Of a stretch of 64,000 bases of DNA, positions 41,916 through 52,569 are shown piece by piece (position 1 is the first letter of the stretch; the number at the start of each line of letters is the position of its first letter). The notes below the pieces were generated by a model. The model had not been told where the DNA came from. It searched no databases and worked only from the letters and a program-made list of their open reading frames with translations. Source of the stretch: Alphaproteobacteria bacterium (lineage in GTDB: Bacteria > Pseudomonadota > Alphaproteobacteria > MPNO01); NCBI GenBank assembly GCA_965248835.1, contig CBDFLJ010000002.1, positions 2,432,001-2,496,000 of the forward strand, given 5' to 3'. Position numbers and translations under genes: made by a program.

Positions 41916-42842
41916 CTAGCGCTCTCCTTTGGGGGTCTTATAGCCTTCCTCCTTGCGGATCCTCATGTACCGGCGAAAGATGTCGCGTTTCTCGGCGTCG
42001 CCGTTCTCCTTGTAGATATACGGGCAGACGTCGACGCAGATGTGGCAATAGGACTCGCGGAACCGCGAGATCGGGTAGCATTTGTCGATATCCGTCAGCC
42101 AGCGCTTGACGCCGTTGGTGGTGATGTAGTCGTCGGGGATGGCATCGCCCGGGCAGTTATTGCGGCAGAGATTGCAGGTCATGCAATAGTCCTGAACCCC
42201 GAACTCGTAAGGCTTGTCGTGGGCCAGCGGCAGGTCGGTGGTCACGAAGCCGGGTCTGAAGTTGGCCCCGAGCTCGGGATGGATCAGGCTGCCGTGGCGG
42301 CCGAGCTCGCCGAACCCGACCTCGTAGAACACCGGGATCGCCTGGATCTGGAAGGAGCCGTTGTGGTGGGCGACGGCGGGATAGCCGAGCTCCTCGCGGA
42401 TCTGACGGGCAAGCTCGGTCGCGATGTCGGCGCAGCGCGCATAGGTGCTCATCGCCTCCAGATCGACTGCGGCCGGGCTCTCGATCGACTTCGCATAGTC
42501 CTCGTAGCAGATCACCGCGATCACGTTCTCGTGGGGCAGATCGACCCCGAGCTCGATGAATTCGGGCTTCAGCGCGGTCATCCCCGTGTCCGCGGCACCG
42601 AGCGCGGCCGCGCGGGCCTTGATATCCGCGCTCATCGCCGCAGGGTCGGTGACCGGCACCGTTTGGGGATTCACCGGGCCATCGCGCAGCGGGGTCAGGT
42701 CGTTCCAGTGCTGCATCGCTGCATCGCGTTCGGGGAAGCGGTGCTGCCACAACGGAACGTCATCCATGCCCCGGTCACGCAGGGACGCGCACAGCAGGGC
42801 ATCCTGCATGCCCTGTTCGCGTATCCAGCTCGAGCCGATCAT
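41916..42842 (-). CDS. Reductive dehalogenase-like (RdhA/QueG superfamily) 2x[4Fe-4S] protein
   Basis: GFGELGRHG, VTTDLPL..DKP, CxxCxxCxxxCP and C-x10-CxxCxxxCP motifs; no Tat signal. Confidence 0.82.
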   Translation of the reverse strand: MIGSSWIREQGMQDALLCASLRDRGMDDVPLWQHRFPERDAAMQHWNDLTPLRDGPVNPQTVPVTDPAAMSADIKARAAALGAADTGMTALKPEFIELGVDLPHENVIAVICYEDYAKSIESPAAVDLEAMSTYARCADIATELARQIREELGYPAVAHHNGSFQIQAIPVFYEVGFGELGRHGSLIHPELGANFRPGFVTTDLPLAHDKPYEFGVQDYCMTCNLCRNNCPGDAIPDDYITTNGVKRWLTDIDKCYPISRFRESYCHICVDVCPYIYKENGDAEKRDIFRRYMRIRKEEGYKTPKGER

Positions 42843-42930: not shown

Positions 42931-43917
42931 TCAGCCGCCCATCCGCAGCACCACCTTGCCGCGGACCTGGCGGTCGCGGATGACGTCGAAGGCCTTGACA
43001 TAGTCCTCCATCGCGAAACACGCCTGGACCGGCACGGTGATCTTGCCGTCGAGATAGAGCTGGAAGATCTCGGCCTGCACGCGGTGGACCCAATCGGGAT
43101 CGCGGTCGCGGTAGGTCGACCAGTTGACCCCGGTCACGGCGATGTTCTTGAGCAGGACATAGTTGGTCTTGAGTGACGGGATCCGGCCGCCGGTGAAGCC
43201 GACCACCACGATCCTGCCGCGGAAATCGAGCGCCCGGACGGCGCCGTCGAAGACATCGCCGCCGACCATCTCGATGACCACATCCACGGCCCCGCTGGCC
43301 GCCTTGACCTGGTCGCGCACCGTGTCTCTGAGCGCGCCGCCGGACAGATCGATGACGTGATCGGCGCCGGCCTCGCGTGCGATGCCGGCCTTGGACATGG
43401 TGGTCAGGCCGGCGATCACGGTGCAGCCGAAGGCCTTGGCGAGCTGGACTGCCGCGATCCCGACGCTGCCGGTGGCCGCGCTGACCAGGACCCGCTCGCC
43501 GGGCTTCACGGCGGCGCGGTCGACGAGTGCGAAATGCGCGGTCTGGTAAGCGACGCCGATCGCCGCGGCGGCATCGAAGTCCATCGCATCGGGGATCGGG
43601 AAGCACAACGAGGCGGGCACGACCATGCGCTCGCAAAACGTCCCCCATTCGGCCTGGACCATCACCCGATCGCCGACGGACAGGCCTTGCACCCCCTCGC
43701 CCAGCGCCGCGACGACGCCCGCGCCTTCCTTTCCGGGGCTGAACGGATGGGGCGGAATGACCTGGTATTTCCCCTCGATCACCAGGAGATCGGGGAAGTT
43801 GACCGCGGCCGCTTTGATATCGACCGCCACCGCGCCCGGCCCGGGGACGGGGTCCGGCAGGTCTTCGATCACCAGATCCTCCGGCGTGCCGACCGATTTG
43901 GCGAGAATTGCGCGCAT
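42931..43917 (-). CDS. NADPH:quinone oxidoreductase family (MDR)
   Basis: VNFPDLL..GKYQ, PG.E and GKVVL motifs. Confidence 0.92.
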   Translation of the reverse strand: MRAILAKSVGTPEDLVIEDLPDPVPGPGAVAVDIKAAAVNFPDLLVIEGKYQVIPPHPFSPGKEGAGVVAALGEGVQGLSVGDRVMVQAEWGTFCERMVVPASLCFPIPDAMDFDAAAAIGVAYQTAHFALVDRAAVKPGERVLVSAATGSVGIAAVQLAKAFGCTVIAGLTTMSKAGIAREAGADHVIDLSGGALRDTVRDQVKAASGAVDVVIEMVGGDVFDGAVRALDFRGRIVVVGFTGGRIPSLKTNYVLLKNIAVTGVNWSTYRDRDPDWVHRVQAEIFQLYLDGKITVPVQACFAMEDYVKAFDVIRDRQVRGKVVLRMGG

Positions 43918-44040
43918 CAAAAGCTCCTGGTTGACACATTCCGGAAAAACCATTTGCTGGCGTTTCCCGCCTCGACCTTCCAGGGCGCAGCGGGCAGGGT
44001 GCCCATGGACGCCCCGGCGGCTGCCGGGAATGGAGGGGCC

Positions 44041-45159
44041 ATGTTAATCGGTGTACCGAAGGAGATTAAGACCGAAGAGCACAGGGTCGGGATGACTCCG
44101 GGCTCGGTCAACGAGCTCACCCGGCGCGGCCATGAGGTGGTCGTCCAGACCGGGGCTGCCCACCGCATCGGCATCGACGACGCCGACTACGTCGCCGCCG
44201 GGGCTCGGATCGCCGCCGACGAGGCCGAGGTCTTCGCCGAGGCCGACATGATCGTCAAGGTCAAGGAGCCGCAGCCGGTCGAGCTTGCGATGCTGCGCGA
44301 GGGTCAGGTGCTGTTCACCTATCTCCACCTGGCACCCGATCCCGACCAGACCAGCGGCCTGATCGAGTCCGGCTGCATCGCGATCGCCTACGAGACCGTC
44401 ACCGATGTCCATGGCGGGCTGCCGCTGCTCACCCCGATGAGCGAGGTCGCCGGCCGCTTGGCGGTCCAGGCCGGCGCCAACTGTCTGGAGATCGCCAAGG
44501 GCGGCTGCGGCATGCTGCTGGGCGGCGTGCCCGGCGTCCACCCCGGCAAGGTGGTGGTGATCGGCGGCGGGGTCGTCGGCACCAATTCGGTCTTCGTCGC
44601 CAAGGGGCTAGGCGCCAGCGTGACGGTCATCGACACCGCGCTGCGCCGGCTCGCCCAGCTCGATTTTCAATTCCAGTCCGCGATCACCACCTTGTATTCG
44701 ACCACCGACACGATCGAGCGCGAATTGACCGACGCCGACCTCGTGATCGGCGCGGTGCTGCTGCCGGGTGCCGAGACGCCCAAGCTGGTCACTGCCGACA
44801 TGGTGCGGCGGATGAAGCGCGGCTCGGTCATCGTCGACGTCGCGATCGATCAGGGTGGCTGCTGCGAGACCAGCCGGCCGACGACTCACAGCGCGCCGAC
44901 CTTCGTGGTCGACGAGGTGGTGCATTACTGCGTGGCCAACATCCCGGGCGCGGTCGCGCGCACCTCGACGTTTGCGCTCAACAACGCCACCCTGCCCTTC
45001 ATCATCCGGCTCGCCCAGCGCGGCTACCGTGAAGCGATGGCACTCGACCCGCATCTGCTGGCTGGGCTCAACGTCCACCGGGGCCGGCTGACTTACGACG
45101 CCGTCGCCGAGGCGCAGAACCGCGACTTCGTGCCGGCCGAAGAGGCGCTGGCCGCCTAA
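44041..45159 (+). CDS. ald: Alanine dehydrogenase
   Basis: [28 protein letters not shown] and DVAIDQGG motifs. Confidence 0.97.
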
Positions 45160-45281
45160 CCGCCCGTTCCGGACAGGCTGGACCGGCGGGTTCGGCGGCC
45201 GCGCGCGCCCGGCCGCGTTCCCACGCCCGGCCCGAGCCGATAGGATGAGCGGCATCGTCGAAGGGCAAGGGGGCGGAACAA

Positions 45282-46187
45282 ATGGCCGGGATGACCGCGG
45301 GCATGATCGGCCTCGGCATGATGGGCGCGCCGATGGCGGCGCGCATCGTCGGGGCGGGCCATGCGGTCCGCCTATACGACTCCGCCGCGGCCCGGCTGGA
45401 TGAAGTGGCGGAAGCAACCGGCGGCACCGCCGCCTCCGGACCGGCCGATGCGGCCGCGGGCGCCGATCTGGTGATCACCATGCTGCCGACCGGCGCCGAT
45501 GTGGCGTGCACCGCTCTCGGCCAAGGAGGGATCGCGGACGGCTTCGGCGGCAGCGGCGTTCTGGTCGACATGAGCTCGTCGGAGCCCACGGGCACGGTGG
45601 CGCTGGCCGCCGAGCTCGCCCGGCACGGCATCGACATGATCGACGCGCCGGTCTCTGGCGGCCGCGCCGGGGCGGTCGACGGCACGCTGACCATCATGGC
45701 CGGCGGTGATCCGGGCGTCATCGAACGCTGCCGCCCGGTGCTCGAGGCGATGGGCAGGCGCATCGTCCACACCGGCGCGCTCGGCAGCGGCCACGCGCTC
45801 AAATCGCTCAACAACACGATCAGCGCGGCCGGGCTGTTGATCGCAACCGAGGCCTTCCTGGTCGGCCGGCGCTTCGGGCTCGAGCCCGCGGTGATGGCCG
45901 AGGTGGTCAACAGCTCGACCGGCATGAACCACGCCACGCTCAACAAGATGGGGCGGTTCGTCTTTTCGCGCGAATTCGATTCCGGGTTTTCGCTCGACCT
46001 GATGGTCAAGGACCTCGAGATCGCGCTGGGGCTCGCCCGCGATACCGGGACCGCAACACCGTTCGCCGCGCTGAGCCGAGAGATCTGGGCCCAGGCCAAG
46101 AACAACCTGGAGCCCGGGCGCGATCACACCGAGATCGTCCGCTGGCTGGAGCGCAGCGCGGGCGCAGAGCTCGCAAACTCTTCGTGA
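45282..46187 (+). CDS. 3-hydroxyisobutyrate dehydrogenase family oxidoreductase
   Basis: IGLGMMG, DAPVSGG, K..NN and KDL motifs. Confidence 0.92.
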   Translation: MAGMTAGMIGLGMMGAPMAARIVGAGHAVRLYDSAAARLDEVAEATGGTAASGPADAAAGADLVITMLPTGADVACTALGQGGIADGFGGSGVLVDMSSSEPTGTVALAAELARHGIDMIDAPVSGGRAGAVDGTLTIMAGGDPGVIERCRPVLEAMGRRIVHTGALGSGHALKSLNNTISAAGLLIATEAFLVGRRFGLEPAVMAEVVNSSTGMNHATLNKMGRFVFSREFDSGFSLDLMVKDLEIALGLARDTGTATPFAALSREIWAQAKNNLEPGRDHTEIVRWLERSAGAELANSS

Positions 46188-47068
46188 CCTCCGGGGCCGA
46201 AGACCCGCCCGCAAGCTACCGTCCCGAGCCGAACAACCTGCGCGGGATATTGTGGATGCTGCTCGCGGTGACTGCGCTGACGGGGATGTTCGCCATCATC
46301 AAGCAGATGGCGAGCGAGCTCCCGTTTCTCGTCATCGCCCTGATCCGCACGCTGGTCGCGCTGATCGTTCTGTCGCCGTGGCTGATCCGCCGCGGCTGGG
46401 CGGGAATCGCGACCCGTCGTCTGAAAACCCATATGCTGCGGTCCTTCTTCGGGATCGCCTCGTTCGCCTGCATCACCTATGCGGTCGGCGCGCTGCTGCT
46501 GTCCGATACGATGGTGCTCTCGTTCACCTCGCCGTTATGGTCGATCGTGATTTCCGCGCTGGTCCTGGGCGAGGCGATCCGCCGCGACCGCACCCTTGCG
46601 ACGATCGGCGGGTTCATCGGCGTCGTGCTGATCGTCAAGCCGCAAGCCGGGCTCGACCCGGCGATGCTGATCGCGCTGGCGAGTGCGCTGCTGACCAGCG
46701 GCGCGATGATCACGATGAAGAGCCTGTCGGCGACCGAGCCGCCCGACCGCAACGTGTTCTATTTCTTCTTCTTCGGCTCGCTATTCCTGTTGGGCCCAGC
46801 GATCGCGACATGGCAGACCCCGACCTGGCCGCAGTGGGGCTGGCTGTTGGCCGCCGGGCTGCTCGGCAGCTTCGGGCAGAGCTTCCTGGCCCGGGCCTAT
46901 GACGCCGCCGAGGTGACCGCGATCGCCCCGCTCGACTTCCTGCGGATGCCGCTCGCCGCGGTATTCGGGTTCGTGATCTTCGACGAGGTGCCCGATGCCT
47001 GGTCGGCGGCCGGCACCATCGTGATTTTCGCAGCCCTGTTGTTCATCACCCGACGGGCCGCGCGGTGA
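46184..47068 (+). CDS. DMT/EamA family transporter
   Basis: About ten hydrophobic segments; FTSPLW and LGE motifs; GTGA overlap. Confidence 0.9.
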   Translation: MTSGAEDPPASYRPEPNNLRGILWMLLAVTALTGMFAIIKQMASELPFLVIALIRTLVALIVLSPWLIRRGWAGIATRRLKTHMLRSFFGIASFACITYAVGALLLSDTMVLSFTSPLWSIVISALVLGEAIRRDRTLATIGGFIGVVLIVKPQAGLDPAMLIALASALLTSGAMITMKSLSATEPPDRNVFYFFFFGSLFLLGPAIATWQTPTWPQWGWLLAAGLLGSFGQSFLARAYDAAEVTAIAPLDFLRMPLAAVFGFVIFDEVPDAWSAAGTIVIFAALLFITRRAAR

Positions 47069-47111
47069 CCGCGATCTTGCATCGGCCGTCCCGGTGCTCA
47101 AGAATTGCCCC

Positions 47112-48227
47112 ATGACCCCGACCGGATCGTCCTCGGAACAGCTTTCCGCGCTCGCATCGTTCCCGATCCGCGATGACCTCACGGCCGCCTATGAGCGCGC
47201 GTGGCAGCACTTGGCGCGACCGGGAACATGGTGGGACGCGGAGCGAAGGCTGGCGATCGCCGCGGAGACCCGCAACGCGCTTGCCTGCCGGTTGTGCCGC
47301 GATCGGGCAGATGCGGTCTCGCCCTTTGCCGTCGACGGCGTCCATGACGAACGCGGCGCGCTGCCCGCGCCGGTGGTCGAGGTCGTCCATCGGATCCGCA
47401 CCGATTCCGGGCGGTTGAGCGAGGCGTGGTGCCGGCAAACCCTGGCGAACGGCCTTTCCGAGATGGAATATGTCGAGACCGTCGCCGTCATATCGATCAC
47501 CACCGCACTGGACACCCTGGCGAAGGGCCTGGGCATTCCGCCGCGCACCCTGCCGGGTCCCGAAGCCGGCGATCCGACCCGCCACCGCCCCGCGAAGGCA
47601 CGCAAGGCGCTCGCCTGGGTGGCAACGCTGGAGCCCGAGGACGTGGCCGAGGACGACCCGGACCCCTATCCCGGCAAGACGCTCGATCTCATTGCCAACA
47701 TCCACCGCGCGATGAGCCTGGTGCCGGCAGAGGTCGCCGCGTTCTTCGCGCTCGATGACGTCATCTATGTGCCGCAATTCGCGATGAAGGATTTTTCACG
47801 CGAGTACCGCGCGATCAGCCACGCCCAGATGGAGCTGCTGGCCGCCCGGGTCTCGCTGATCAACCGATGTACCTATTGAACGGCCGGCCACGCGATGCTG
47901 CTCCGTGAGAGCGGCCGAATAGCCGGGCGGGATTACACGATGGACGGCGTCAAGGGGACCGAAGGCGAAGACGGCGGCATCCCGCACGGCGGTCGCTTGC
48001 TCGCCTTCGCCGAAGCCGTCATCGGCGGCGGCACCGCGCTCGACCGGGCCCGGACCGACCTCATCGAGGCGGTGGGCATCGAAGGATTCGTCGATGCCGC
48101 CGGTGTCGTGGCCTCGTTCAATTCGGTCGTCCGTATCGCGGATGCGACCGGCATCCCGCTGGAGAAGTTCAAGCGCGACCAGACCACCGATTTGCGCGCG
48201 GAACTCGGCATCGACGACTGGCACTAA
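47112..48227 (+). CDS. AhpD/alkylhydroperoxidase-related selenoprotein (UGA 47877-47879 read as Sec), 371 aa
   Basis: Two track ORFs in the same frame separated only by TGA plus 5 codons; joined sequence ELLAARVSLINRCTY-U-TAGH matches the AhpD CxxCxxxH motif; downstream hairpin; C-terminal FN.VVRIADATG. Confidence 0.85.
47897..47915 (+). promoter_or_regulatory. Bacterial SECIS-like hairpin
   Basis: GCUGCUC-CGUGA-GAGCGGC: 7-bp stem starting 18 nt after the UGA, with GU at the 5' side of the loop. Confidence 0.7.
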
Positions 48228-48258
48228 GCTGCATTGCACAAACCAAGGGAGGCTCTGC

Positions 48259-48984
48259 ATGGCCGAAATCGCGGTTCCTTACGAGCACGGAGGCAGGACG
48301 TTCGAGGGGATGCTGGTCTATGACGAAACCGTCACGGCAAAGCGTCCGACGATTTTGATGCAGCCCGACTGGCTCGGCGTCTGCCGCAATTCGATCGACA
48401 TGGCCCACGACGTTGCGGCCAAGGACTATGTCGTGATGATCGCCGACATGTTCGGCACCGGGTACGGCGCGCGCGAGAAGACCTTCGATGAACTGCTGAA
48501 GATCTCGCGCGAGGTCCGCGGCGACCTGCCGTTTCTGCTCGGCTGCGGCCCGGCCGCGGATGAGGCCCTGACCGCAGAAGCCAACCGTCTGGGCGTGATC
48601 GGTCCGGACAGGAAGGGCGCCATCGGCTATTGCATCGGCGGCGGCATCGTCCTGGAGCAGGCGCGCGCGGGCGCAGGCTTCGGGGGCACGGTGGTCTTCC
48701 ACGTCACCTTGCCCAACCCGGTCGAGCCGGACAGGGGGGCGGCCTTCAAGGGCCGCGTGCTGGTCTTCCACGGCTCGGCCGATCCGGTGACGCCGCCGGA
48801 GCAGATCGACGCGCTGGAAGCCGAGCTGACCGAGGCCAATGTCGACTGGCAGCTCATGATGTACGGCCACGCCAGCCACTCGTTCTGCGACAAGGGCGTG
48901 AACAACGAACTGCAGCGCTACGACGAGAAGCTGTGCAACCAGTCCTATCGGATGATGCGCGACTTCTTCTCGGAGATCTTTTGA
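48259..48984 (+). CDS. Dienelactone hydrolase family protein
   Basis: GYCIGG nucleophile, HG.ADP and HSF motifs; GGAGG RBS. Confidence 0.9.
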   Translation: MAEIAVPYEHGGRTFEGMLVYDETVTAKRPTILMQPDWLGVCRNSIDMAHDVAAKDYVVMIADMFGTGYGAREKTFDELLKISREVRGDLPFLLGCGPAADEALTAEANRLGVIGPDRKGAIGYCIGGGIVLEQARAGAGFGGTVVFHVTLPNPVEPDRGAAFKGRVLVFHGSADPVTPPEQIDALEAELTEANVDWQLMMYGHASHSFCDKGVNNELQRYDEKLCNQSYRMMRDFFSEIF

Positions 48985-49036
48985 TCCCGGCCGGGCCTGA
49001 CCAAGGCACCGCCCGGGATCCTCGAGGGTGTCCGCC

Positions 49037-50164
49037 CTAACGGGCGGCCATCGGCACCACCGCGCGCTGGTCGGCGCCGTCATAGGCGCTAAGCGGGCGG
49101 ATCAGCTTGTTCGCCGCGTTCTGCTCCAGGTAATGGGCGGCCCAGCCGGTGATCCGGCTCATCACGAAGATCGGCGTGAACATGTCGATGTCGAAGCCCA
49201 TCAGATAGTAGGCCGGGCCGGCCGGAAAATCGAGGTTGGGGTGGATGCCCTTCTCCTCGATCATCACCTTCGCCAGCCCATCCGCCATACGGGTCCAGGT
49301 ATCGTCACCCTTCCAGGCTGCGAGGTCTTCGAGGCACTTGCGCATCGTCGGCACGCGGGAATCGCCCGACTTGTAGACCCGGTGGCCGAAACCCATCACC
49401 AGCCGTTTGCCGGCGATCGCATCGCGCATCCACTGCTCGGCGGTCTCCGGATCGCCGATCTCCAGCATCATGTGCATCACCGCCTCGTTTGCCCCGCCAT
49501 GCAGCGGGCCCTTGAGCGAGCCGATGCCGCCGGTGATGGCCGAATAGATGTCCGACCGCGACGAGGCGATCACCCGCACGGTGAACGTTGAGGCGTTGAA
49601 GCTGTGCTCGGCATAGAGGATCAGCGAGGTGTCGAAGGCCTTGACCGCCTCGGGCGGCGGCACCGCGCCGAAGCACATGTTGAAGAAGTTCTCGGCCATG
49701 CTCAGTTCGGCGCGCGGGGCGATGCGTTCGAGCCCTTTGCGGAACCGGTAGTCGGTGGCGATCATCGTGGGGATCTTCGCGAGCATGTCCATCGCCCGGG
49801 AAAGGTCGGAATCGGCCGGCTCGCCGCCCCAGGCGGTCTCGGTTGTGCCGAGGTAGCTCACCGCGGTGCGGATCGTATCCATCGGGTGCGCATCCCGGGG
49901 GAAGCGCCCGATCACCGCGACATGGTCCTCGGAGATCTCCCGCCGGCCCGCCTCGTCGCGTTTGAAGGACGCGAGCTGTTCCGCATTCGGCAGCGCGCCG
50001 TGCCACAACAGGTAGGCCACCTCCTCGAACGAGCACGCCGCGCACAAATCCTGGACCGCATAGCCGCGATAGGCGAGCGAATTGGTCTCCGGCATCACCT
50101 TGGAGACGGCGGTGGTGTCGACGACCACGCCGTCGAGGCCCTTCTGGATCTCCGGTTGAGACAT
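49037..50164 (-). CDS. prpC: 2-methylcitrate synthase
   Basis: YAEHSFNASTF, GPLHGGANE, MGFGHRVY and PNLDF motifs; operon context. Confidence 0.93.
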   Translation of the reverse strand: MSQPEIQKGLDGVVVDTTAVSKVMPETNSLAYRGYAVQDLCAACSFEEVAYLLWHGALPNAEQLASFKRDEAGRREISEDHVAVIGRFPRDAHPMDTIRTAVSYLGTTETAWGGEPADSDLSRAMDMLAKIPTMIATDYRFRKGLERIAPRAELSMAENFFNMCFGAVPPPEAVKAFDTSLILYAEHSFNASTFTVRVIASSRSDIYSAITGGIGSLKGPLHGGANEAVMHMMLEIGDPETAEQWMRDAIAGKRLVMGFGHRVYKSGDSRVPTMRKCLEDLAAWKGDDTWTRMADGLAKVMIEEKGIHPNLDFPAGPAYYLMGFDIDMFTPIFVMSRITGWAAHYLEQNAANKLIRPLSAYDGADQRAVVPMAAR

Positions 50165-50167
50165 GCG

Positions 50168-51061
50168 CTAGACCTTGAAGTTGTAGAGGCTTTGGTCGAA
50201 GTGATTGTAATCCTCGTAGCGGACTACGCCATAAAGCTCCTTGCGGGTCTGCATGCGCTCCAGCAGCGAGGCCTGGGTCCCTTCGGCCGCCAGCGTCGCA
50301 AGCCCCTGCGCGACCCCGAACATCGCCAGCCTCAGCGTGGTGACGGGGTAGATCGCGATGTTGTAGCCGAGCGAGACCAGCTCGTCCCTGGTGAGCAGCG
50401 GCGTCTTGCCGAACTCGGTCAGGTTCGCCAGCAGCGGCACGTCGAATTCCTTGCGGAAGGCCTCGTATTCGACGTGCGTTGTCAGCGCTTCGGGAAAGAT
50501 CGCGTCCGCACCGGCATCGACATAGGCCTTGGACCGCTCGATCGCCGCCGACAGGCCTTCGGAAGCCTTCGAATCGGTTCGCGCCATCAGCAGGAAGTTG
50601 GGGTCGCGCCTGGCGTCGGCGGCGGCGCGGATCTTCCGGACCATCTCCTCGGTCGGGATGAGCGCCTTGTTGTCGAGATGACCGCAGCGCTTGGGGCTGA
50701 GCTGGTCCTCGATATGGCAGCCGGCGAGGCCGGCGGCCTCGATCTCCTGGACCGTGCGGGCGGCGTTCATCGCCTCGCCGAAGCCGGTATCGATGTCGAT
50801 GATCGCCGGCAGGTCGCTGACCCGGGCGATCTGCCGGCCCCGGAGAGCGACCTCGGGCAGCGTCGTCAGCCCGATGTCGGGCAGACCCAGATCGGCCGAC
50901 AGCGCCGCACCGGAGATATAGATGCCGTCGAAGCCATGCTCCTGGACCATCAGCGCGACCAGCGGCGAGAATGCGCCGGGCATCTGGAGCAGGCGGCCCG
51001 AGGCGAGCGCGGCGCGGAACGCGGCGCGTTTGTCCTCCGGTGTCTTCTTGGCAAACAGCAT
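50168..51061 (-). CDS. prpB: Methylisocitrate lyase
   Basis: YISGA, DIDTGFG, IEDQ..PKRCGH and ARTD motifs. Confidence 0.94.
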   Translation of the reverse strand: MLFAKKTPEDKRAAFRAALASGRLLQMPGAFSPLVALMVQEHGFDGIYISGAALSADLGLPDIGLTTLPEVALRGRQIARVSDLPAIIDIDTGFGEAMNAARTVQEIEAAGLAGCHIEDQLSPKRCGHLDNKALIPTEEMVRKIRAAADARRDPNFLLMARTDSKASEGLSAAIERSKAYVDAGADAIFPEALTTHVEYEAFRKEFDVPLLANLTEFGKTPLLTRDELVSLGYNIAIYPVTTLRLAMFGVAQGLATLAAEGTQASLLERMQTRKELYGVVRYEDYNHFDQSLYNFKV

Positions 51062-52569
51062 CAGAAGATCCCCCTGTCGTCGCGCTCCGCGTTGGCGAGC
51101 CCGGCCGGATCGACGGCGACGTTGAGTCCGCCCAGCGAAGCGGCGTCGAGATCGGGCAGTTGCTGGACCAGGTCGAGGAAGCGGCGCTGCTCGGCTTGCG
51201 TGACGATCCCGTCGGCCAGGGTCTCGAACTTGCCGACATAGTCGGCGCGCGCGAACGGCCGGGCACCGGCGGAATGGGCGTTCGCCCGGGCAAGCTCGTC
51301 GGTGATCGTCTCGCCGGTCGCCAGAAGGATCTCGATCCGGCCGCCGAAGGCCCGCCGATTCGGGTCGGGCTCGTGATAGCGCTGCGTCCAGGCGGGATCT
51401 TCGACGGTTTCGATCTTGTGCCACAGACGGACCGTATCCGCGCGCGCCGCGCGCTCGGGCGCGTAGGAACGGAGGTGATGCCATTCCCCGTCCTGGAGCG
51501 CGACCGCCAGGATGTACATGATGCTGTGGTCCAGCGTCTCGCGGCTTGCAGCCGGGTCCATCTTCTGCGGATCGCCCGCGCCGGTCCCGATCACGTAATG
51601 GGTGTGGTGGCTGGTGTGGAGCGTGATGCGCTCGACCGAATCGAAGTCGGCGATGCGCGCGCGCATCCGGAAGGCGAGGTCGACGATCGCCTGGCTCTGG
51701 TATTCGGCCGAATGCTCCTTGGTATAGGACTCCAGGATTGCCCGCTTGGGCTCGCCCGGGGCCGGCAGCGGCACCGTGTAATCGGCGTCCGGCCCGTCGA
51801 GCACCCTGGCGATCACGCTGTCCTCGCCCTCGTAGATCGGCGACGGCGCGCCCTCGCCCCGCATCGCGCGGTCGACCGCCTCGATGGCGAGCTTGCCGGC
51901 GTGCGCTGGTGCGAACGCCTTCCAGCTCGAGATCTCGCCCTTGCGCGACTGGCGGGTGGAGACCGTCACGTGCAGCGCCTGCTGGACGGCCTGGTAAACC
52001 CGCTCGGCCGGCAGGCCGAGCAGCGTGCCGATCCCCGCCGCCGCCGAAGGGCCGAGATGGGCGATGTGGTCGATTTTGTGGGCGTGCAGGCAGATGCCCT
52101 TGACCAGATCGATCTGGATCTCGTAGCCGGTCGCGATCCCGCGCACCAGGTCGCGCCCGCCACGACCGGTCTGCTGGGCGACCGCCAGGATCGGCGGGAT
52201 GTTGTCGCCGGGATGGGAATAGTCCGCGGCCAGGAAGGTGTCGTGGTAGTCGAGCTCGCGCACGGCGGTGCCGTTGGCCCAGGCCGCCCATTCGGCGGCG
52301 AACCGGCGCTCGCCAGCGATGCCGAAGACCGTCGCCCCGCCGTCCCGCGGATGGGCCACGGCCTGGGCGCGGGCCGCGGCGACCGGCGCGCGGTCGAGCG
52401 CGGCGACGGCGACCGCGGCGTTGTCGATGATCCGGTTGACGATCATCTCCTCGACCGCGGGCTCGACGTCGACCGGATCGGCCGCAACCGCGGCGATCTT
52501 CCAGGCGAGCTGATCCTCTCGTTCTAATGCATGTTTGGAAGGATAAACTCTAACCTTATGATTAATCAT
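51061..52569 (-). CDS. prpD: 2-methylcitrate dehydratase
   Basis: [21 protein letters not shown] and ISSWK motifs. Confidence 0.93.

Follow-up and report, generated by a model that had tools for sequence, protein, structure and literature searches.

In the window, by which we mean the whole 64,000-nt stretch of alphaproteobacterial DNA analyzed here, two ORFs lie in the same frame with a gap of 15 nt between them: the first (47094–47879, 261 aa) ends at a TGA and the second (47895–48227) comprises 110 aa. Coordinates and frame, as given in an earlier note on this DNA, were re-derived with the same result. With U in place of the TGA, the reading frame runs uninterrupted from the ATG at 47112 to the TAA at 48227 and encodes 371 aa with a single internal TGA, around which the residues read ELLAARVSLINRCTY-U-TAGHAMLLR. 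Residues are numbered from this ATG, at which the truncated 255-aa database record P0002 also begins. The second ORF had been described as lacking a ribosome-binding site of its own, and inspection by eye of the 20 nt before the ATG at 47895 indeed revealed no AGGA/GGAG-type site. A promoter and terminator scan of positions 43900–49200 returned none of either. The features of the locus are compiled in Table 1.

Table 1. Features of the AhpD-related selenoprotein gene in the window.
Feature	Position	Strand	Basis
AhpD-related selenoprotein gene, NF041238, predicted tandem AhpD fold	47112..48227	+	read-through ORF, family profile, predicted structures
Conserved C59-x-x-C62, H78 and H93 in degenerate AhpD-like repeat	47286..47390	+	homologue conservation, N-half fold matches
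AhpD-type relay E241, C253, Y255, U256, H260	47832..47891	+	register equal to PA0269 E36, C48, Y50, C51, H55
In-frame TGA, inferred Sec256, second position of C253-T-Y-U256	47877..47879	+	translation, TGA/Cys alignment
SECIS-like hairpin, 7-bp stem, CGUGA loop	47897..47915	+	stem pairing, codon freezing, genome hairpin scan

The read-through protein matches the NCBIfam model NF041238 (AhpD_rel_CFYUT) with 448.4 bits at a cut-off of 175, over positions 1–355 of the 357 in the profile. This single model spans both halves colinearly (profile positions 1–238 and 240–355), indicating that their arrangement is not due to chance. The C-x-Y-(U/C)-T motif of the family is present as C253-T-Y-U256-T257, i.e., as CTYUT and not CFYUT; otherwise the protein shows nothing different in kind from NF041238, with which it shares the full-length match, the CxxU motif, the interchange of TGA and Cys, and the SECIS-like hairpin. 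Scores for TIGR00778 (AhpD core domain) and Pfam CMD are just above their cut-offs, and two further models stay below theirs: TIGR01926 (peroxidase-related enzyme) with 40.1 of 81.8 bits and TIGR00777 (AhpD proper) with 13.4 of 191.95 bits.

In a 2026 review (PMC13188914), NF041238 appears among the Sargasso Sea selenoproteins as “hypothetical protein 1”, and it is on the table in this review that we equate the two. The available text of the 2005 Sargasso Sea paper reports four Sec sequences and seven Cys homologues for hypothetical protein 1 and presents no functional evidence for it (PMC1088965). The window gene is a member of a selenoprotein family that has been catalogued since 2005 and is not new; the family model whose existence had been thought possible in the note is a curated one, and the family has been in print for as long. 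That no function has been characterized also agrees with the literature covered here, which contained no functional study of the family (most subscription journals were outside its scope).

Comparison with homologous genes showed that the aligned codon is a TGA in 44 of 44 genes of the aligned DNA and in 3/3 metagenome genes, and in none of these 47 is the stop a TAA or TAG. In the genome carrying the window gene (G000), five full-length members of the family are encoded, and all have a single TGA, at the Sec codon. Among 41 genomes of the same order, the family was found above the cut-off in 32, and all 100 of the over-cut-off matches listed contain one TGA. One member in another genome (G012 C1:2147504–2148538, minus strand) carries a TAG besides the TGA and is probably a pseudogene or affected by a sequence error. 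Both halves are conserved in 29 aligned genes, i.e., on either side of the TGA.

At the protein level, 208 of the 212 close homologues listed end exactly at C-x-Y/F and four run through with a Cys. A more diverse set of 154 proteins comprises 96 that end at C-x-Y, 33 that read through (31 with Cys, two with Gly) and 25 other fragments; all counts of truncated and Cys homologues were read from protein records and not from codons. The two read-through homologues with Gly at the Sec position are P0226 and P0246, the former of which has also lost the first Cys and may be catalytically dead. A metagenome scan for the DNA of the Cys homologue P0122 returned four other loci, three with TGA and one partial. 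Aligning homologues across the TGA had been proposed as a check, and the alignment indeed displays Cys/TGA interchange with both halves in frame.

In a quick tree of 117 rows (25 Cys forms, 76 truncated proteins and 16 TGA genes out of the 29 aligned, with sequences cut at C-x-Y), the Cys/stop label changes at least eight times on well-supported branches and 19 times by parsimony. The supported clade of 12 that holds the window protein includes five Cys forms, and the five G000 paralogues fall into separate, deeply separated clades. The family was not found at E 1e-25 in any of 400 further genomes drawn from across the phylum, in a sample where at most four candidates were scored per genome and which recovered four of the five copies in G000. 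The family is distributed patchily and has expanded in this order.

A hairpin is located 18–36 nt downstream of the UGA, with a loop G 26 nt after it. Bacterial SECIS elements are stem-loops that follow the UGA closely on its 3′ side and carry a G in their small apical loop (PMC1088965), and this is the arrangement found here. The sequence CTC-CGT-G starts 22 nt after the TGA in 47/47 TGA genes. Of 33 invariant residue columns in the 29 aligned genes, only Trp169, the TGA, Leu264 (CTC) and Arg265 (CGT) use a single codon, whereas codons vary in the remaining 29 degenerate columns; CGT accounts for 10% of the Arg codons in the family genes. The codons of Leu264 and Arg265 are thus frozen, yet Arg265 itself is kept in only 11 of the 33 read-through proteins, which argues for a constraint on the RNA. 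Over 41 distinct rows, pairing in the 7-bp stem reaches 92% compared to 25–53% for slid controls, and seven compensatory cells were found, all at one stem pair (C-G, A-U, G-C). None of 500 shuffles scored as high in pairing and compensation, figures which are inflated by the kinship of the rows. The folding energy of the hairpin region does not differ from that of shuffles (z −0.17, no more stable), and Rfam gave no match in this locus (L008).

A strict genome scan with the core 20–32 nt after a stop triplet returned five TGA, zero TAA and zero TAG matches, the five corresponding to four family paralogues and a Rdx/SelW-like gene. The loose hairpin scan (188 TGA, 62 TAG and 18 TAA matches) is mostly noise and roughly tracks the stop-triplet counts. 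A CGUGC hairpin loop is common to the AhpD-related family and two genes of G000 unrelated to it, the Rdx/SelW-like gene and a DsbA-like gene.

The machinery for Sec insertion, for which a search of the genome had been suggested, is complete with respect to selA, selB, selD and tRNA-Sec. The selA and selB genes adjoin at C1:1178871–1182127 and each exceeds its cut-off, as does selD, and the tRNA-Sec gene lies 2 kb beyond selA/selB with 74.7 bits at a threshold of 47. A selA match is present in all 41 related genomes (40 over the cut-off), so that co-occurrence does not discriminate in this set, which has no selA-negative genome. The cases named in advance as speaking against the claim (no Sec machinery, halves out of frame, or separation by TAA/TAG) were not encountered in the 41 related genomes, again a set with no selA-negative control. 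Four further genes of G000 carry an in-frame TGA at a redox motif (loci set L053–L056): a Rdx/SelW-like gene (C1:1326363, plus strand), a DsbA-like gene (C1:1141961, minus), an AhpC-TSA peroxiredoxin-like gene (C1:455054, plus) and a deiodinase-like gene (C1:1772552, plus). Additional candidates with TGA and hairpin, of UxxC or UGSC-like type, were found at C1:758609 (minus), C1:1303460 (plus), C2:858062 (minus), C2:859633 (minus), C2:871676 (minus) and C2:932162 (plus). The selenoproteome of G000 seems to be large.

Could the TGA instead be a true stop, so that the locus encodes two polypeptides in a conserved arrangement or is a pseudogene, or could Trp or Cys be inserted at it in place of Sec? 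Gene callers do stop there, and most database homologues end at C-x-Y/F. Against this stand the uniform use of TGA in the 47 genes and the location of the catalytic His260, which precedes the next ATG; in addition, 11 of the 29 genes offer no in-frame start in the first 15 codons downstream of the TGA. The position of His260, a residue of the relay, and these missing starts also led us to reject two independent genes. Other window genes end in TGA under table 11, which rules out a genome-wide reassignment of TGA. A sequencing or assembly error is, as far as can be judged, ruled out by the conservation of the TGA and by contigs which cross it without another letter or gap; these contigs stem from three runs of one sample that may be the source sample and are not independent. 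The SECIS-like constraint and the Cys orthologues fit Sec specifically. Taking these lines together, we consider a true stop very improbable and the two ORFs almost certainly one gene in which the UGA is decoded as Sec.

The AlphaFold2 model of the protein is all-helical (pLDDT 93, pTM 0.93). Its C-terminal half (165–360) aligns with D. radiodurans AhpD (6k40) with a Z score of 13.9 and an rmsd of 2.9 over 178 residues, and matches to 6k40, 2oyo and 2prr at Z 13–14 place the predicted structure in the AhpD/CMD fold. Over the whole chain, human Sestrin2 aligns best (Z 17.1 and rmsd 3.3 for 236 aligned residues, spanning 8–349 of the model). The all-helical fold is shared with the AhpD-like peroxidases, i.e., 6k40, R. 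eutropha YP_296737 (2prr), PA0269 and M. tuberculosis AhpD, as is the register of the Glu-Cys-Tyr/His-Cys-His relay. The relay residues of PA0269 (see Table 1) correspond to E118, C130, H132, C133 and H137 in M. tuberculosis AhpD (PMC3141380); the window protein has the same spacing as both, with Sec in place of the second Cys, and all five relay residues are invariant in 29/29 aligned genes. In line with the prediction that the TGA falls on the second Cys with the His in register, C253, U256 and H260 match C48, C51 and H55 of PA0269. In contrast to these peroxidases, the window protein is about twice as long, with two repeats in one chain. Either C253 or U256 may be the nucleophile; Sestrin2 keeps only the first Cys of the pair (PMC4674687).

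The N-terminal half carries the second CxxC (CRLC) that the note had pointed out, at residues 59–62. When this half was folded alone, the top eight of 48,161 chains were AhpD/CMD/sestrin folds with Z scores from 7.6 down to 4.5, values that helical bundles may also attain by chance. Foldseek ranks the same families first with weak E-values, and BLASTP detected no sequence-level repeat between the halves (best E 0.21). The C59-x-x-C62 pair sits at the matching helix start, and Leu47 and Ala66 occupy the positions of the relay Glu and His; since both relay residues are absent, the N-terminal CxxC is unlikely to be another catalytic site of the AhpD type. C59, C62, H78, H93 and E122 are nevertheless invariant in 212/212 close homologues and in 90–95 of the 96 distant truncated ones, and we infer that C59/C62/H78/H93 form a metal site or a second, electron-relay disulfide. 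The most divergent paralogue (L010, G000 C2:1305984–1307018, minus strand) has lost these four residues and keeps the C-x-Y-U relay as well as the SECIS core; it lies with an ABC/FtsX transporter pair on one side and a DNA polymerase III alpha gene on the other.

The predicted structures of the whole chain and of the N-terminal half alone support a fold of two AhpD-like repeats, and the full Glu-Cys-Tyr-Sec-His relay is found only in the C-terminal half. Of the 371-aa tandem AhpD-fold Sec enzyme that had been proposed, the predicted tandem fold and the Sec residue are supported, and the N-terminal CxxC, which lacks the relay Glu and His, probably does not qualify as an equivalent site. A similar architecture is known from Sestrin2, which corresponds to a duplicated YP_296737-like monomer and overlaps with the bacterial dimer (PMC4674687). 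Both Sestrin2 and, according to its predicted model, the window protein combine two AhpD-like repeats in one chain, one of them with the catalytic relay; however, the relay repeat is N-terminal in Sestrin2 and C-terminal in the window protein, and the two share about 11% identity. None of 29 family members matched the sestrin Pfam family at E values up to 1, in a search whose HMMER filters drop weak matches, and no paper linking the NF041238 family to sestrins was found in the literature covered here. Independent duplication and common descent are equally likely origins of the sestrin-like architecture.

In 8/8 orthologous loci, the gene follows genes for an alanine dehydrogenase, a hydroxyisobutyrate-dehydrogenase-like protein and an EamA transporter, and faces prpD-prpB-prpC. 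A dienelactone hydrolase gene lies directly downstream in the window and is kept in one of the eight loci. There is no redox partner among the conserved neighbors of the window paralogue, and these neighbors point to no substrate. The prpD-prpB-prpC methylcitrate genes are located at window positions 49037–52569 (minus strand), and PrpD gives its highest score with NF042438, a model for high-GC Gram-positives (868 bits at a cut-off of 950), an unusual result for an alphaproteobacterium. A reductive-dehalogenase-like protein with a 4Fe-4S dicluster domain is encoded at 41916–42839 (minus strand; TIGR02486, 110 bits, cut-off 160).

Neighbors of other family members were surveyed in 29 loci with 1.5-kb flanks, which represent related genomes and other paralogues, and vary widely. 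A peroxiredoxin-like gene is located just downstream in 4/29 loci, in three of them with a TGA in its UxxC motif, and the family gene follows selB in four. A deiodinase-like TGA gene adjoins it in one locus (L039), and 11 of the 29 loci, all from one genus, place it near Lrp and a thioredoxin-reductase-like gene. Clusters of selB, the AhpD-related gene and a peroxiredoxin-like TGA gene, in this order, were noted at L037, L041, L042 and L047 and at L040 and L046, with two AhpD-related genes in tandem at L037. Paralogue L009 (G000 C1:744713–748768) is flanked on the same strand by tgt (queuine tRNA-ribosyltransferase) and queG (epoxyqueuosine reductase).

Judging from sequence and predicted structure, we lean towards a selenoprotein gene whose product would act as a selenol peroxidase or as a peroxiredoxin reductase; with the Sec gene taken as given, such a role appears slightly more probable still. 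SelB binds the SECIS loop, and selenolates are stronger nucleophiles than thiolates. By analogy to established SelB biology, SelB-GTP-Sec-tRNA would bind the hairpin past the UGA and insert Sec256. As in AhpD, a relay of Glu241, His260 and water, together with Tyr255, could activate C253-x-x-U256, and the target of attack by the selenolate would be an alkyl hydroperoxide or the oxidized site of a peroxiredoxin partner. The reaction would yield a Cys253-Sec256 selenenylsulfide, to be re-reduced by a cellular thiol system. The N-terminal repeat probably takes the place that a second subunit has in the usual AhpD dimer, an arrangement known from Sestrin2, and C59/C62/H78/H93 would serve there as the metal site or electron-relay disulfide. 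PA0269 is a weak peroxidase (PMC3141380), and the nearest solved relative, DR_1765, protects against H2O2 according to a mutant study cited in a review (PMC8945050). That there are five old paralogues points to a range of substrates more than to a single generic peroxidase.

The protein could instead have another thiol-redox job, reducing oxidized small-molecule thiols or selenium/sulfur metabolites, or acting, as sestrins do, as a sensor of redox state or of a ligand, with only weak peroxidase activity. Several observations are compatible with this: the predicted sestrin-like architecture, the deep separation of the five paralogues, the widely varying neighbors with selB upstream in some relatives, and an N-terminal site that is retained in every close homologue and absent from the divergent paralogue L010. 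However, the invariance of the five-residue relay is what would be expected for catalysis, and there is neither a sestrin Pfam match in the 29 members nor evidence of a regulator or ligand; we regard such a job as unlikely, though not far-fetched.

Reductive dehalogenation is more doubtful. Here Sec256 would abstract bromine or iodine from haloaromatics, as AhpD-fold Bmp8 does with cysteines, and the protein would be a sestrin-shaped, AhpD-fold bacterial counterpart of thyroid deiodinase, its N-terminal CxxC serving as an electron relay; the paralogues, at least five per genome in one alphaproteobacterial order, would cover different substrates. The tetrabromopyrrole debrominase Bmp8 (6ohi) shares the AhpD fold and uses cysteine-disulfide redox chemistry, debromination being proposed to proceed via formation of a Cys disulfide (PMC5577590). 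It aligns with the C-terminal half about as well as AhpD does (Z 12.8, rmsd 3.1, 178 aligned) and with the N-terminal half at Z 6.3. Unlike the window protein, Bmp8, which was compared by fold, is a Cys-only single-domain protein from a biosynthetic cluster; it ranked below peroxidase-related chains and gave no sequence match at E values up to 10, whereas 6k40-type proteins match at 5e-13. The reductive-dehalogenase-like gene lies 4.3 kb upstream, but it stays below its cut-off, is encoded on the other strand and falls beyond the flanks compared in the orthologous loci. The dienelactone hydrolase gene is adjacent, but only one of the eight orthologous loci keeps it, and the deiodinase-like Sec gene adjoins a single relative (L039). 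We consider a dehalogenase improbable, and the peroxidase or peroxiredoxin-reductase role remains our preferred reading.

For annotation, our analysis means that 208 of 212 database homologues stop just short of the active-site Sec and are in need of correction. The predicted two-repeat sestrin architecture is a useful pointer for the biochemistry of the family, the natural Cys forms in Microbulbifer (WP_444884422.1) and Microbacterium are expressible without Sec machinery, and the relatives beside selB and a Sec peroxiredoxin-like gene name a candidate partner. If dehalogenase or peroxiredoxin-reductase activity were shown, this would provide a function for a family known since 2005.
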